DNA of 63,950 nucleotides, filler included, from Candidatus Rokuibacteriota bacterium (GTDB lineage Bacteria; JAUVQV01; DATDCY01), in assembly GCA_031406795.1 (NCBI GenBank). It is 9 parts of 9 records of this genome, joined end to end, with 100 filler letters (N's around TTAATTAATTAA, not from the genome) between each part and the next. Parts side by side here need not be neighbours in the genome. Positions count along the whole stretch, not along the records: positions 1 to 17,482 come from JANOHV010000203.1; 8 more parts are not named here. The stretch is one strand, 5' to 3'. Position 1 is the stretch's first letter. Every line of letters begins with the position of its first letter. Both the position numbers and the translations under genes were made by a program. Below are positions 8,033 through 17,582 of the stretch, one piece after another. Below the pieces are notes generated by a model. That model was not told the DNA's origin. It saw only the letters and a list, made by a program, of their open reading frames with translations, and searched no databases.

Positions 8033-8052
8033 GCTACAACGCCTGGTTCGCT
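8033..8052 (-). repeat. truncated attC (left arm only)
   Basis: GCGAAC-CAGGC-GTTGTAGC runs directly into the leader of the next cassette. Confidence 0.7.
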
Positions 8053-9404: not shown

Positions 9405-9440
9405 ACCGAGTGGACCGAGGGCCGTTAACCGGACCCGGCT
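9405..9440 (-). mobile_element. group II intron domain VI remnant
   Basis: Near-identical to the 3' end of the intron at 10910-10945 (GCCGGG.CCGGTTAACGGCCCTCGG.C.ACTCGGT). Confidence 0.8.
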
Positions 9441-10375: not shown

Positions 10376-10514
10376 GCTCACTGCGACATCGTGAGCCGAA
10401 ATCAAGCCGCATGGGAACTCGCAACGAGGAGTGAAGCACCGAAAAGGCGAAATTTGAAGAGTTCGTCAGCGGCTATTTCTGGCCTTGACGTGGGGAGACC
10501 ATATAAGGGTTAGG
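10362..10514. repeat. 140-bp hairpin element between direct repeats, copy 1
   Basis: TATAAGGGTTAGG at 10362 and 10502; interior differs from copy 2 at only 3 positions; imperfect inverted repeat. Confidence 0.85.
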
Positions 10515-10894: not shown

Positions 10895-10909
10895 TGTGGT
10901 TTTCTCTGC

Positions 10910-13121
10910 ACCGAGTAGGCCGAGGGCCGTTAACCGGCCCCGGCCCCTCTCAGAACCGTACGTGACAGTTTCCCGTCATACGGCTCAAGCACTTCGTAAG
11001 GGCTCTGTCGATGAAGAGAGACCCGGCAATTCCGTGAGTCCCGCATTTTCAGATCGTACAGCCGGCCTGGAGCGGATGCAACCGCGCCCAGCCGCGAGCG
11101 GCCCGAGTGCGGAAGTATTCGTCCTGGCCGTGATCGTAGGGATTTGTTTCTCCCCGGATCTTCACGTGCCGGATGATGCGTACGCTTCCGGCGCGCAGCA
11201 GATCCACGATCTTTCTTTGCCCCAAGTTTCCTTTGACGGTCGCGAAGAATTGCCATAGGGTGGTGGTCGTTGATCGGAAGTAGTGCTTCCGGGTCCACCG
11301 CTTGCCTTTGGCCGTGTGCCTTCTTCGCGCCCATCGCCAGAGTTGCCAGAAGATGCAGGAATCGACTTTGGTAAAGGCGGCCGAGGAACAGACGTGCCGG
11401 TGATAGTTCGCCCAGCCCTGGACCACGGGATTGAGCTTGCCGATCATGACTGCAGTCTGCGCTCCTCGGTGGGCTCGAATGATTTCCTTGGTCTTGGCGA
11501 CGATCGCCAGCACTGCGGTCTTGGCGGGCTGGATCAGCAGCTTGCCGCCGTACTTTCGCAGGTTCTGGCCGAGAAAATCGAACCCCTGCTCGATCGGCGT
11601 GATGCGTGTCTTCTCCTCGGAGAGGGTCAGCCCTCGTTCTCGGAGAAACGCCGCGACTGCGGGGAGAACCCTGTCCCGGAGCAGTTCTTGCGAGCCGCCC
11701 GTGATGACAAAGTCGTCCGCATAGCGGATCACGTTGACCTTGGTACGCCTCGGGACGGCCTTTCTCACTGCCGTCTCCAGGCCATCCAGAGTCATGTTCG
11801 CCAGCACGGGGGAAATGATGCCCCCTTGCGGGGTCCCGGCCAGCGTCGAGTAGAGCATGCCTTTGTCCAGGTACCCGGCCCGCAACCATTGTCCGAGAAC
11901 CTTCGCGTCCATCGGGATATGGCGCAGCAGCCAGGCGTGATTGATCTCATCGAAGCAGGAACGGATGTCCCCCTCCAGTACCCAACGCGGCGAGCACTTC
12001 TTGGCCAGACAAATGAAGCACTGTGCGATTGCGTCGGCGCAGCCGCGGTACTCCCGAAATCCGTAGGAGTTCGGGTCCCCCATCGTCTCGGCCACCGGAG
12101 TCAGCGCCAGCGCGTAGAGCGCCTGCATTGCCCGGTCTCGCATCGTTGGAATTCCCAGAGGTCGGAGTTTACCGTTCTTCTTCTCGATGTAGACCCGTCT
12201 CAGCGGCAGGGAACGATACCCGTGCCGTCTGAGCGTGTTGATCGCCTGCATCTTTTTGCGCGACGTGTTCCAAACTTTCCGGTCCACGCCCGGGGTCCTG
12301 CGGCCTTTGTTGCTCACGACTCGTTTCACCGCCAACAACTTTGCGTGATACGAGTGGGTCAGAAGCCACATCAGGGCTTTCACCTTGGCGTGTCTTCGTT
12401 CCCGAACTGCCTTTGCGATACGCACCTGCAGTCTTCTGACAGCGTGACGTACCGGACCCCAGGAAATGGCGTCCCAGTCCGTGCGGCTGTCGGAGAGCGC
12501 ACCAGTCGACCGTCTCGCGGCCACCGTCATTTGCATTCTCTCCCCCGAAGATTCCCCAGATTCTCCCGCAAAGAAGCACCAGATGGACGTCAGCGTATCC
12601 CGACGATTACCGCCGGGCCTTGGCTTCTTCCATCCTCTCTCTCCCGACCTTCGTCAGCCTGCCTTACGGTTGGCCTGCCCAATGTTGCCGGGCGAAGGAC
12701 CGGGAGTTACCACGTTCCGCTTACCTGACAACAGATCACGTAGGCCCACTCTGTCCACCGGCGGGAATGTCGTCCGCGTCGGACCACGTTAGAGAGGTCC
12801 GATCCACCTGCGCACCTTTTGGTCCAAGCCGGTCAGCCCTTCGGCTTGTTCGCTATAACAGCGGTTACGAGTGTTCACCTGGGTTGGCCCTATGACCTTA
12901 TCCTAACCCCTCACCCGGATCGGGCTTCCAGGAGGGCGTCGGCCTCGCGGCTCTTGCCCCGCATCTCGCAGGATGCTTCGGCGCATTGCGGAGAGGCTCC
13001 ATACCCGCTCGGGATGCACCCGAGCACGCATGCTCCCCTTGGATCGCGGCAACGGAATGCCGGGTTCAAGCGGCCCTCCTGCACCGTTGAACAGTCTTGT
13101 GTAAGCGACCTCGTGTCGCAA
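10910..13121 (-). mobile_element. group II intron (IIB, chloroplast-like CL1 type) inserted in attC R' box
   Basis: 5' TTGCGACACGAGGTCG; 34-nt domain V GAGCCGTATGACGGGAAACTGTCACGTACGGTTC (10953-10986); domain VI; removing it restores GTTCG|GCAG. Confidence 0.92.
11049..12536 (-). CDS. ltrA: group II intron reverse transcriptase/maturase, no HNH endonuclease domain
   Basis: RVT_N (V.RLQ.RIAKA), TPGVD, RPLGIPT..DRA.Q, GTPQGG.ISP.LAN, RYADD, domain X GWANY; ends after the R...I.G..NPYD motif. Confidence 0.95.
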   Translation of the reverse strand: MQMTVAARRSTGALSDSRTDWDAISWGPVRHAVRRLQVRIAKAVRERRHAKVKALMWLLTHSYHAKLLAVKRVVSNKGRRTPGVDRKVWNTSRKKMQAINTLRRHGYRSLPLRRVYIEKKNGKLRPLGIPTMRDRAMQALYALALTPVAETMGDPNSYGFREYRGCADAIAQCFICLAKKCSPRWVLEGDIRSCFDEINHAWLLRHIPMDAKVLGQWLRAGYLDKGMLYSTLAGTPQGGIISPVLANMTLDGLETAVRKAVPRRTKVNVIRYADDFVITGGSQELLRDRVLPAVAAFLRERGLTLSEEKTRITPIEQGFDFLGQNLRKYGGKLLIQPAKTAVLAIVAKTKEIIRAHRGAQTAVMIGKLNPVVQGWANYHRHVCSSAAFTKVDSCIFWQLWRWARRRHTAKGKRWTRKHYFRSTTTTLWQFFATVKGNLGQRKIVDLLRAGSVRIIRHVKIRGETNPYDHGQDEYFRTRAARGWARLHPLQAGCTI

Positions 13122-13253
13122 CGAACGTAGCGTTTAGCCGCGGGCGCGCTTGCCGGCCCGTATCGGCACGTTACAATTCTCCTGAGCATCAGCCTCAAAG
13201 GGCCGAAATGCAAGCGTGATCCGTCGGCTACAACGCCTCTATAAGGGTTAGGC
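13122..13253 (-). repeat. attC site with expanded spacer
   Basis: GCCTAAC-CCTTATAGAGGC-GTTGTAGCCGAC...GCGGCTAAACGCTAC-GTTCG. Confidence 0.88.
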
Positions 13254-13681: not shown

Positions 13682-13800
13682 GCCTAACGTAACGTTTAGC
13701 CGCAGGCGCGCTTGCCTGCCCGTATTTGCACATTACACTGTTCACTACACTCACACTCAAAGGGCAGAAATGCAAGCGTGACTGTCGGCTAGAACGTCTT
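13682..13800 (-). repeat. attC site interrupted by IS110-family element
   Basis: Same attC family with R' GTTAGGC intact; the R'' end is replaced by the IS. Confidence 0.85.
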
Positions 13801-13872
13801 GATACTCATTAAGGCCTCCGGGGAAGCGCCACGTCGGTACCATTGGTGAAACCACCGGAGAGGAGGCCTTGA

Positions 13873-15280
13873 ATGAAGTTCTACACGGGACAGCACAAGT
13901 TCTACTGCGGTGTCGATCTGCACGCCCGCACCATGTTTTTCTGTGTCCTTGACGAGCGAGGATACCCGCTTCTGGAGAGGAACATCAAGACCGAACCGGA
14001 ACTCCTTCTCAAGACTATCGCGCCGTATCGAGAAAGCCTGGTCGTCGGCGTCGAGTGCATGTTCACCTGGTACTGGCTCGCCGACCTGTGCTCCCGGGAG
14101 AAAATCCCTTTCATCCTCGGGCACGTGCCACTGCCGGTTATCAGCGGACCCACTTTGTCGGTTTCGGTGGACCCACCCTGAAATTGCGGAATTCCGCATC
14201 AGCGGCAGTAAAATTCCGGTGAGTGGGTCCGTCGGGCGGGCATACGATTAATGGGTATCGACAACCCCGGGACCTATAAAGACAGCCAGCCCCGACTTCT
14301 ACCTCAGTTTGTTGCCACGTGGCAACAAATCCATACTCCATCTCGTGGAGGTGATACCCGTCGAACCCTTTTAGCAGTTCGGTGATGGATGTCAAGCCAC
14401 TTCCTCCTCGCACCTTGCGGGCAGCCACAAAGTCATTCGCAGGGTTGACACGCCAGATACCCGCGTCATATATGGACCGGAAGACGGACGTCCCCTTTGC
14501 CCTTCCTGAGGACGTTCAATCAGTCGAATTGTCCATCTGGGTCCACACGTCGAAATCCATAGCAGCTCAGTTGACAGGTCATCAGGAGCAGCTTTCGAGC
14601 AGTGGCAGGTTCACTCTTGACCACCAGTATCAGCACGGCGTGGTATTTTCCGCTTACCCCATTTCCGGCCAGGTGGGTCCGACTACCGGCAGGGGGTGGG
14701 TCCACCTTTCACCGGCAGTAGCACGGGCACGCGCTTTACATGAAGGCGATCCACGGCGGCAAGGCCAAGAACGACCGGATCGACGCCAACAAGATCGCCG
14801 TGCTGCTGCGCGGCGGTATGTTCCCCGTGGCTTACGTCTATCCACCAAAAATGCGCTCGACCCGCGACCTGCTGCGAAGACGCATGTTCCTCAACCGAAA
14901 ACGATCCGCGCTGATCACGCACATCAAATGTACGTTCGCTCAGTACAACCTGCCGGAACCCAAGCAAAACGTATTCCGCGTTTCTCAACGCGAAGGGGTC
15001 GCCGAGCAGTTTGCGGACCCTGGCGCCAGCCGCAACGTCCAACTCGACCTGGATCTGCTCAACTTCTACGATCAGACGCTCACCAAGCTCGAACAGGAAC
15101 TGACCGTCATCGCTAAGGACCACGACCCCGACTCCTATTTCCGCCTGCGCACGGTACCGGGCATCGGAAAGATTCTCAGTCTGGTCATTCTCTATGAGAT
15201 CCACGACATCAACCGCTTCCCCTCGGTGCAGGATTTCGCGTCGTATTGCCGGCTGGTCAAGCCGGCCAAGGAGTCCGGCG
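13873..15280 (+). pseudogene. IS110 family transposase, split by an insertion and C-terminally truncated
   Basis: YCGVDLH, VGVEC, FILGH|ALYMKAIHGGKAKNDRIDA, TVPGIG, FASYCRLV...ES; homology is lost after that. Confidence 0.88.
14126..14723. mobile_element. 598-bp IS21-like non-autonomous element
   Basis: TG..CA ends; ~28-bp imperfect TIRs (TGCCACTGCCGGT / ACCGGCAGTAGCA); internal GGACCCAC repeats; 8-bp TSD CGGGCACG at 14118 and 14724. Confidence 0.85.
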
Positions 15281-15521
15281 GCTGGCTTGCTCCGGCACCA
15301 CCTGCCTTGATTGGAAGCCCGGGCACGCGCTGCAATTATCCTCCCTCGCTTCGGATTGCGACTATTCCCGTGGCGCCCCTCACCCGAACCTGGCTCTAAC
15401 TGGAAGGCTCCGTAAGGAGTTCATCCATTACCTTGAATAGGACGGTACGAGGGCCCCGATGAGTTTCTAGGCCGCGGTGGCGCCGACCGCCGCCGCAGTT
15501 GCCGCCGGGCAACCGAGCCTC

Positions 15522-15675
15522 GATAAGTGTTTGGTGCTCACTGCGACATCGTTAGCCGAAATCAAGCCGCATGGGAACTCGCAACGAGGAGTGAAGCACC
15601 GAAAAGGCGAAATTTAAAGATTTCGTCAGCGGCTATTTCTGGCCTTGACGTGGGGAGACCTTATAAGGGTTCGAT
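15522..15675. repeat. 140-bp hairpin element, copy 2, within a composite attC
   Basis: ATAAGTGTTTGG (15523) and ATAAGGGTTCGA (15663) flanks, 140 bp apart. Confidence 0.85.
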
Positions 15676-16247: not shown

Positions 16248-16380
16248 ATCGAACGTAGCGTTTAGCCGCGGGCGCGCTTGCCTGCCCGTATTTGCATAGT
16301 TGCCCTCGAACTCGACTCTAAACGCAAAGGGAAGAAATGCAAGCGTGACTGTCGGCTACAACGCCTTATAAGTGTTTCGT
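16248..16380 (-). repeat. attC site with expanded spacer
   Basis: ACGAAAC-ACTTATAAGGC-GTTGTAGCCGAC...GCGGCTAAACGCTAC-GTTCGAT. Confidence 0.88.
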
Positions 16381-16720: not shown

Positions 16721-16847
16721 GCCGAACGTTGCGTTTAGCTGCCGGCGCGCTTGCGGGCGCCTTGGAACGTGCCTTCGCCTCTGCTCATTGAACGGTAGCC
16801 CTCTTGCAAGCGTGACGGTCGGCTACAACGCCTTATAAGGGTTGGGA
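16721..16847 (-). repeat. attC site with expanded spacer
   Basis: TCCCAAC-CCTTATAAGGC-GTTGTAGCCGAC...GCAGCTAAACGCAAC-GTTCGGC. Confidence 0.88.
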
Positions 16848-17230
16848 GCTTTCTCTGTCATTAGTGATTTGAATTGTCTCTTCATCGTGTAGGTGTTGAC
16901 TAGAACCGCACCAAGAAGCACAAAGGAAAGCGCTACTTCACCTGATAAAGACGACATGGCTTTAGACCATCCCTCTTGTGCTTGCTTAGCCATTTCGATA
17001 CTAATTGACCGGTACAATCGTTCATTGTCAGTGTTCGGAGTGAAGGCCTCCGCCCGAGTACGGATGCCTGCGTAGGAAGTCTTGACCTTAGGAAGGACGA
17101 CGATCGTGCTGTATGCCTCGAATGCCACGCCACAGACAATGAAGGCAATTCCAAGGAAGAGCAATCGCGCGTTCTTTCTGTGAAATGCCGGATCATGGAG
17201 TTGCTTGCTCAATCTCAATGCGCCATTCAT
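16823..17230 (-). CDS. hypothetical two-TM membrane protein (cassette)
   Basis: 135 aa with two hydrophobic helices; stop codon lies inside attC L''. Confidence 0.68.
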   Translation of the reverse strand: MNGALRLSKQLHDPAFHRKNARLLFLGIAFIVCGVAFEAYSTIVVLPKVKTSYAGIRTRAEAFTPNTDNERLYRSISIEMAKQAQEGWSKAMSSLSGEVALSFVLLGAVLVNTYTMKRQFKSLMTEKAPNPYKAL

Positions 17231-17238
17231 CTTTGCTC

Positions 17239-17482
17239 ACCGGGTAGCCGGGGGGCGTTGCCGCCCCCAAGCCCCCTCAGAACCGTACTTGAGAGTTTCC
17301 CCTCATACGGCACAAGCACTTCATAAGCCTCCTTCGTAGGAAGTAGTATCCGTGTCGGGCCATGTTGGAGAGGCCCGAACCACCCGCTTACCTTTTGGTC
17401 GACGCCTGTCAGCCCTATTTGGCGGAGTCGCTTTAACGGCGGTTGCAAGTGTTTACCTTAAGTTGGCCATATGATCTTATCC
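17239..17482 (-). mobile_element. ORF-less, internally deleted group II intron derivative (5' part cut by contig end)
   Basis: 17350-17482 is homologous to 12775-12903 (domain I) and is fused almost directly to domains V-VI. Confidence 0.85.
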
Positions 17483-17582
17483 NNNNNNNNNNNNNNNNNN
17501 NNNNNNNNNNNNNNNNNNNNNNNNNNTTAATTAATTAANNNNNNNNNNNNNNNNNNNNNNNNNNNNNNNNNNNNNNNNNNNN
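17483..17582. other. artificial contig linker (also 19855-19954, 25859-25958, 37956-38055, 46915-47014, 50459-50558, 54898-54997, 61535-61634)
   Basis: N44-TTAATTAATTAA-N44, with stops in all frames. Confidence 0.99.

Follow-up and report, generated by a model that had tools for sequence, protein, structure and literature searches.

The stretch of DNA analysed here, the window, comprises 63,950 nt from Candidatus Rokuibacteriota bacterium (GCA_031406795.1). It consists of nine contigs concatenated with N44-TTAATTAATTAA-N44 linkers (17483-17582 and seven more), and adjacency across a linker is meaningless. The first contig (1-17482) ends in an integron-type cassette array that holds one complete group II intron (intron 1), part of another (intron 2) and a further remnant, and this report concerns how the guide hairpin of these introns relates to the attC recombination sites of the array. 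Eight imperfect palindromes of ~130 nt each lie on this contig between ~8030 and 16850, each copy coming after an open reading frame (ORF) on the minus strand. We identify them as attC sites by their palindromic R'' (RYYYAAC) and R' (GTTRRRY) boxes, the extra bases on one arm and their placement behind an ORF. Pfam families were found in 7 of the 10 minus-strand cassette ORFs: carbonic anhydrase, MazF, YoeB/ParE-like, Phd/YefM, DUF1622, an antitoxin component and a bleomycin-resistance-like N-terminal domain.

Intron 1 occupies 2212 nt of the minus strand (13121->10910), beginning 5' UUGCGAC and ending CUACUCGGU 3'. Its 5' end was set by a pattern search and by the family alignment introduced below, which place the junction at ...GCUAAACGCUACGUUCG|UUGCGAC (...GCUACGUUCG|UUGCGAC when written as the occupied site), with the last exon base at 13122 and the first intron base at 13121. 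The 3' junction, ...CCUACUCGGU|GCAGAG, was set by the Rfam alignment of domain 6 (D6), with its bulged A at -7, and by the point at which the window and its closest relative, locus L003, diverge. Joining the two exons gives GTTCG|GC, an R' core, and an uninterrupted copy of the same GTTCGGCAG is found at the attC near 16724. The 5' exon is itself an attC (13122-13253, on the minus strand, which is the attC top strand), with the R'' box GCCTAAC and an R' box, GTTCG|GC, that is interrupted by the intron. Rfam matches to group II intron parts occur on the minus strand only, with RF02012 (domain 1, D1) at 12907-13064 and RF00029 (D5/D6) at 10910-10988 (63.6 bits) and again in intron 2 at 17239-17315 (56.7 bits); D5 is visible, as is the bulged A at -7. 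The intron ends, UUGCG...GU, depart from the group II consensus 5' GUGYG...AY 3'. Among 52 relatives the first and penultimate intron bases covary (U-G in 26, C-G in 4, G-A in 20 and G-C in 2), which looks like natural compensatory change of the boundary contact that G1 and the penultimate A form in group II introns.

Within intron 1 lies an intron-encoded protein (IEP) of 495 aa (12536->11049, minus strand) with the Pfam domains RVT_N, RVT_1 and GIIM, a YADD motif and a short C-terminal tail, which scores 357 bits against TIGR04416 (cut-off 300); intron 1 is the only intron of the window to encode such a reverse transcriptase/maturase. A Pfam search of this protein found no HNH endonuclease domain. 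Of the solved reverse transcriptases (RTs), the nearest is that of T.el4h, a IIB intron (6ME0_C, E 3e-162 over residues 5-479), as against 1e-36 for LtrA and 6e-35 and 2e-30 for class IIC RTs. At 562 aa, the protein solved in the T.el4h ribonucleoprotein (6ME0) is longer than the window's IEP (495 aa), and the two match as far as residue 479 in each. T.el4h is not known to target attC sites. Read from the nearest solved RTs together with two of the guide elements described below, exon-binding sites 2 and 3 (EBS2 and EBS3), we class the introns as IIB/CL-type. An assignment to class C was not borne out, and intron 1 is predicted to be an intact, endonuclease-less member of the IIB/CL type.

The hairpin proposed in the first-pass annotation as the guide to attC lies at 12779-12802 of intron 1 (minus strand). 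It reads UCGGACC/UCUCUAACGU/GGUCCGA, and exon-binding site 1 (EBS1), CUAACG, falls at 12787-12792. Intron 2 has a counterpart at 17355-17378 (minus strand; UCGGGCC/UCUCCAACAU/GGCCCGA), with EBS1 CCAACA at 17363-17368, and the two stems show a single compensatory difference, A-U to G-C. The hairpin sequences, loops and coordinates given in the first pass are exact when the minus strand is read. The intron 1 hairpin folds with -14.4 kcal/mol (z -2.2, equalled by 8 of 200 shuffles) and that of intron 2 with -16.4 kcal/mol (z -3.4, equalled by 0 of 200).

We used the IEP to gather relatives. At least 8000 were scored in the protein database, all with E <=1e-50 and the best 92% identical. A metagenome scan gave 80 loci, a scan of genome contigs only two distant ones (49% and 46% identity), and 1814 records of a plasmid collection match the IEP, all but one at less than 60% identity. 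The 67 loci with at least 560 nt upstream of the IEP were aligned to intron 1. Nine alignment rows were left out because their exon was short or missing, their boundary could not be placed or, in L064, an N lay near the junction; the set in which loops and exons were compared holds 59 introns, the window's included, all with a 5' end that could be located and an exon of 7 or more bases.

Across this set the hairpin loop covaries with the exon. It is perfectly complementary to exon positions -6 to -1 in 24 of the 59 introns, to at least 5.5 of 6 in 34 and to at least 5 of 6 in 48; when exons were shuffled among loci 2000 times, perfect matches averaged 3.0 and never exceeded 8. An unbiased scan of every D1 position has its sole peak at the hairpin loop, with 34 of 55 loci where permutation gave 10 at most. 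The stem covaries as well: 76.7% of 430 cells are paired, with 127 changed on both sides, a level reached in 0 of 500 shuffles, and slid registers leave <=60% of cells paired. The hairpin was found in all aligned introns, with a variable loop between conserved flanks. In an RNAalifold consensus of D1 (28 sequences; 74 pairs, 64 with compensatory support) it forms the terminal stem-loop on the last d-arm branch, preceded by a single-stranded segment and then a small hairpin, and 3' of the EBS2 segment. This terminal position of the d-arm is what we take to be Id3 of IIB models, the topology coming from the consensus fold. The identification of the hairpin as Id3/EBS1 in the first pass is upheld by the covariation of loop with exon and of stem with stem and by this position at the d-arm tip, and on these alignments the hairpin at 12779-12802 is the EBS1 stem-loop.

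Two further guides can be assigned in the same way. The EBS2 core of intron 1, UAGCG (12851-12855, minus strand), lies in the single-stranded segment UUAUAGCGAAC and pairs with exon positions -11 to -7 (CGCUA), a UAGCG:CGCUA pairing common to the window and L003. Across the family, the EBS2 segment holds a complement of at least 5 nt to exon positions -18 to -6 in 21 of 56 loci, where 1000 permutations gave a mean of 4.0 and a maximum of 11. EBS3 is the C at intron position 369 (12753, minus strand), which pairs with the G at 10909 that opens the 3' exon; in 38 of 52 loci this column and position +1 of the 3' exon form a Watson-Crick pair, with 15.7 expected from composition. The occupied site (13122-13132, minus strand) is composed of intron-binding site 2 (IBS2), CGCUA at 13128-13132, and IBS1, CGUUCG at 13122-13127. 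Given the pairings of EBS1, EBS2 and EBS3, the intron would therefore read CGCUA-CGUUxG|G.

What these guides read in the relatives is in many cases the core of an attC. GTT stands at exon positions -5 to -3 in 20 of the 59 loci, where ~1 is expected, in agreement with the earlier proposal of RNA-guided targeting to the GTT of attC; it is shifted one base 5' in 6 loci and one base 3' in 2. Joining the exons of U1-type introns restores GTTAGGC, GTTAGGT, GTTAGCC, GTTAGAC or GTTCGGC, and the insertion site is GTTRR|RY, four bases 3' of the G|TT crossover. The guide varies with the core, the tuned pairs being CUAACG/CGUUAG, CGAACG/CGUUCG and CCAACG/CGUUGG. L003, with 91% IEP identity the closest relative, lies in a cassette array whose attC sites are of the window's family and whose ORFs share the intron's strand, and its loop CCAACG matches the observed exon CGTTGG at 6 of 6 positions; L025 and L028 have CGAACG loops on CGTTCG exons. 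We tallied the EBS1 base against exon position -2 over the 20 loci with GTT at -5 to -3. U:A occurs at 11 loci, the wobble U:G at 3, G:C at 3 (L025, L028, L045) and C:G at 1 (L003), with one U:C mismatch in intron 1 of the window and one C:T mismatch in the distant L002. The EBS1 guide does follow the attC core, and intron 1 is the exception.

Intron 2 was thought in the first pass to be a variant tuned to GTTGG. As assembled (17239-17482, minus strand) it consists of the 3' part of D1, followed ~21 nt later by D5/D6, and the contig ends within D1. The D1 block is 78% identical to intron 1 (intron 1 positions 213-343) and the D5/D6 block 83%; D2-D4 and the IEP are absent from the assembled copy. 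Its 3' exon starts GAGC (17235-17238), and the cassette downstream has the R'' box GCTCCCAAC (16842-16850, minus strand), the complement of which is GTTGG|GAGC, a 4 of 4 match to the exon; this R'' and the GAGC start at 17238 are as first described. The EBS1 of intron 2, CCAACA, predicts UGUUGG, which fits the GTTGG that the cassette R'' would predict, and its EBS2 segment differs from that of intron 1 and predicts CGCUU. The idea of variants tuned to GTTAG or GTTGG holds in the relatives, L003 (CCAACG/CGTTGG) among them; intron 1, on its mismatched site, is an exception, and for intron 2 it depends on a joint that none of the listed public contigs bridges (below).

Since pairing of EBS1 with IBS1 is described as universal in group II introns (PMC4424553), the matches could be trivial, any homing intron matching its own site, and attC could be an accidental ectopic hit. 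The many targets outside attC in the family (29 of 77 rows are 'other') and the mismatch of intron 1 speak for this explanation. It is countered by the excess of GTT at -5 to -3, by the loop CUAACGU in 14 of the 20 GTT loci, whose IEPs are only ~56% identical to the window's, by the restoration of GTTRRRY in joined exons, by six independent exons whose fold is that of an attC and whose AAC arm has the extra bases, and by the presence of two or three intron copies in one array. We regard a trivial match as very unlikely, and favour guide-directed insertion into attC.

The folded exons also bear on the strand. When the 5' exons of the Y1/GTT group were folded as DNA, CTAAC:GTTAG paired over 80-125 nt in six (L003, L018, L025, L028, L035 and L048), and in the L boxes of these six the 5' (AAC) arm is longer by one or two bases. 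The window attC is alike in this respect, GGCGTT-G-TAGCCG against CGGCTAAACGC placing an extra base on the AAC arm. Extra bases on the arm of AAC mark the top strand (Nivina et al., PMC5027507). In the flanks of 16 loci, the longest stop-to-stop ORF is mostly on the intron's strand (opposite in L021, L022 and L044), a measure that GC-rich DNA makes too ambiguous to weigh as evidence. The AAC-arm extra bases and the orientation of the cassette genes place the introns in the top strand of attC, in the same sense as the cassettes.

Targeting of attC has been described for class C introns (PMC3001079, PMC4424553). In IIC-attC introns, S.ma.I2 among them, IEP and ribozyme are of class C, and insertion is into the attC bottom strand at TTGT/T, in antisense orientation to the cassettes (PMC7923331, PMC3001079). 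If the introns of the window were of this ordinary kind, a folded bottom strand would have been recognised mainly by its shape, with an IBS1 of only 3-4 bp. They do occupy attC sites of a cassette array, and they share with IIC-attC introns a mobile group II lifestyle specialised on attC, a position at the 3' foot of the folded hairpin and a core containing GTT (PMC3001079). In contrast, the IIC-attC introns as described have no EBS2 and an IBS1 of only 3-4 bp (PMC3001079), whereas those of the window have a 6-bp EBS1 pairing together with EBS2 and EBS3, and they are inserted in the top strand, in sense orientation and two bases further 3'. The IEP is nearest to a IIB RT (E 3e-162) and not to IIC RTs (1e-30 to 1e-35), EBS2 is a feature of the family, and the site is GTTRR|RY, not GT|T. 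Furthermore, the introns are sense to the seven Pfam-supported cassette genes, and they lie in the strand whose AAC arm has the extra base, which is the top one. Having neither the class C IEP and missing EBS2 nor the bottom-strand, antisense TTGT/T insertion of that group, the window introns fall outside it, and we give an ordinary IIC-attC origin next to no credence.

The nearest case in print is UHB.I2. It comes from a soda-lake metagenome, is of group IIB1 with an IEP of class CL1, and was reported with the fragments H.ha.F1 and H.ha.F2 (Sonbol and Siam, Mob DNA 2021, PMC7923331). Compared by its description, UHB.I2 shares the UUGCG...GU ends, the sense orientation to the cassettes, the position directly after an attC and a IIB fold with EBS1 and EBS2 (PMC7923331). 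The published account of UHB.I2 reports no conservation of flanking exons and no EBS3 bulge (PMC7923331), whereas here EBS1, EBS2 and EBS3 are each backed by covariation and the target is GTTRR|RY. Among the papers listed by searches on group II introns and attC, we found none that connects EBS1 of a UHB.I2-like intron with the R' core of attC; the supplements of PMC7923331 may hold EBS/IBS assignments. By these features the window introns belong with the little-studied UHB.I2 kind, and what is new here would be the targeting rule.

With the identity of the hairpin, its pairing rules, the strand, the position and register of insertion and an intact IEP free of an endonuclease established at the level of sequence, we think it highly probable that the EBS1 hairpin of an intact IIB/CL-type intron guides insertion to the R' core of the attC top strand. 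In the mechanism that we propose, the EBS1 loop CUAACG would pair with the last six bases of the 5' exon, EBS2 UAGCG with the five exon bases upstream of IBS1, and the EBS3 C with the first base of the 3' exon. Together the guides would read CGCUA-CGUU[A]G|G, which corresponds to the 3' arm and R' core (GTTRR|RY) of attC on the strand that the integrase does not use. The landing point would be four bases 3' of the integrase crossover, in sense orientation and at the head of the downstream cassette. Because the IEP has no endonuclease, homing would proceed by reverse splicing into attC with complementary DNA primed at the replication fork, a route reported for endonuclease-less introns (PMC4424553). 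Since the intron is sense, it would be spliced out of cassette transcripts, and since the crossover lies 5' of the insertion point, it would be carried along with the downstream cassette.

Several observations weigh against guidance of the intron to attC by its EBS1. The first is the site that intron 1 occupies, where CGUUCG leaves a C·U mismatch to EBS1 at exon position -2. Intron 1 sits on this mismatched site while the perfect site at 13684-13690 and the equal sites at 16251 and 16724 stay empty. Both the occupied ACGTTCG, with its one mismatch, and the perfect ACGTTAG in the R' region of the empty attC at 13684-13690 were confirmed on the minus strand. In the 16251 and 16724 regions IBS1 is CGTTCG, identical to that of the occupied site, and one of the two also has the same 3' bases (GCAG); as these attC sites are empty although their IBS1 is equal, the array is far from saturated. 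The R'' box of intron 1's own cassette, GCCTAAC (10507-10513), would pair with GTTAGGC, and the site may once have been a perfect GTTAG. We take this as no more than a hint, since R''/R' complementarity has not been kept in other cassettes of the array. Inside the window alone, the co-variation of loop and exon hangs on one informative position, exon -2, and is weak; it goes beyond chance because the relatives show it (24 of 59 perfect, and L003).

The attC nature of the targets meets similar objections. The minimum-energy fold pairs R'' with R' in only 6 of the 15 folded exons. A self-BLAST of the 5' exons at 42 loci (L011, with a 5' exon of <80 nt, was skipped) found attC repeated within the locus only in the window, L003 and, weakly, L022; L020, L075 and L081 gave short inverted or single self-matches only. 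No integrase gene is present on contig 1, where the array reaches the contig end (17482) on the side on which intI is expected. Finally, of the introns in the window only intron 1 retains its 5' end, and the 5' exon of intron 2 lies beyond the end of the contig.

For intron 2, the joint between its two blocks is a further point on that side. Three freshwater-sediment runs of one study contain 84% of the sampled words of the window. The public contigs of four runs extend only 23 bases past 17482 and do not reach the 5' exon of intron 2, and among the contigs listed for these four runs none crosses the joint at 17342/17343. Two contigs stop at this point, and in runs X1 and X2 their summed depth equals that of the bin that includes 17342/17343. 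The two non-bridging contigs fully account for the depth, so that no bridging contig is hidden. Beyond the joint one of them continues into sequence like that of the IEP, while the other has D2-like sequence in front of it; both run as full-length intron, and the intron pieces have ~4x the depth of the cassette piece. With the joint unbridged, hairpin and cassette could come from different intron copies. Intron 2 might then be an assembly artefact that combines D1 and D5/D6 of different copies, with the agreement on GTTGG arising by chance. We consider this doubtful, while granting it a substantial minority share: a k-mer misjoin would need more overlap than the 3-4 bases that the two pieces have in common at the joint, minority paths can be lost from contigs, and the 3' exon GAGC matches the cassette R'' at 4 of 4 positions whichever D1 is attached. 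ORF-less deletion derivatives of group II introns are also known. The deletion in intron 2 may be real but have been dropped from the public contigs.

In a quick IQ-TREE phylogeny of 77 IEPs with a midpoint root, the window and L003 form a clade of their own (support 100), apart from the soil clades with CGTTAG and from the GTT(-6) clade of L014, L015 and L019. Introns apparently aimed at attC fall into at least three separate IEP lineages, with the registers GTTR|, GTTRR| and GTTRRR|. Targeting of attC would be either old and often lost or gained several times. Four sister introns (L069, L075, L077 and L080) have targets of another kind, ...CCGAAC| or ...TTTCGG| within short tandem repeats (TAGGTTCGGA units), to which their EBS1 (GUUCGG) is perfectly matched. 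We considered the ...CCGAAC| targets of L069, L077 and L080 as R''-like attC cores and rejected them, as their flanks are short tandem repeats with no attC hairpins.

Other features of the array were noted on the way. A third intron remnant, of D6 only (9405-9439, minus strand), ends ...CCACUCGGU|GCGGAAAAG (...CUCGGU|) directly upstream of a MazF-type toxin-antitoxin cassette. At 8033-8052 of the minus strand there is only the R''-L'' half of an attC (CCAGCGAACCAGGCGTTGTAGC), running straight into the ribosome-binding site of the last ORF (8018->7635), and this is probably the distal end of the array. Two near-identical elements of ~135 nt (10376-10513 and 15527-15670; GTGCTCACTGCGACATCG...GGGGAGACC), each with a GTT core at its end, look like ORF-less cassettes or a second attC family. 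The region 13873-15399 holds a transposase reading frame, presumably IS110-like, that starts MKFYTGQHKFYCGVDLHA... and is apparently interrupted at ~14140-14720 by an insert with flanking repeats of the type GTGCCACTGCCGG...GGACCCAC; the frame adjoins a damaged attC at ~13684-13810.

The general picture of group II intron targeting is unchanged by these findings. An attC offers very little conserved sequence, and only class C introns were previously understood to home there, mainly by shape and in antisense orientation. The introns described here would be a second, unrelated type that reaches attC by base pairing, in sense orientation and with a guide that covers the only conserved bases of the site. 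The targeting rule would account for the single published case, UHB.I2, and provides a search rule for such introns in the form of the loop CNAACG and the ends UUGYG...GGU. Their short, modular guides could make them an easy model for guide-loop swapping, and the findings raise the idea that introns could ride in cassettes without blocking expression. More tentatively, and short of an even chance in our judgement, a widespread endonuclease-less IIB family of soil, sediment and freshwater may have repeatedly aimed EBS1 and EBS3 at the R' core of the attC top strand, with the integron as its vehicle. If so, the intron would act as a leader of the downstream cassette, splicing out of its transcript and being moved together with the cassette by the integrase.

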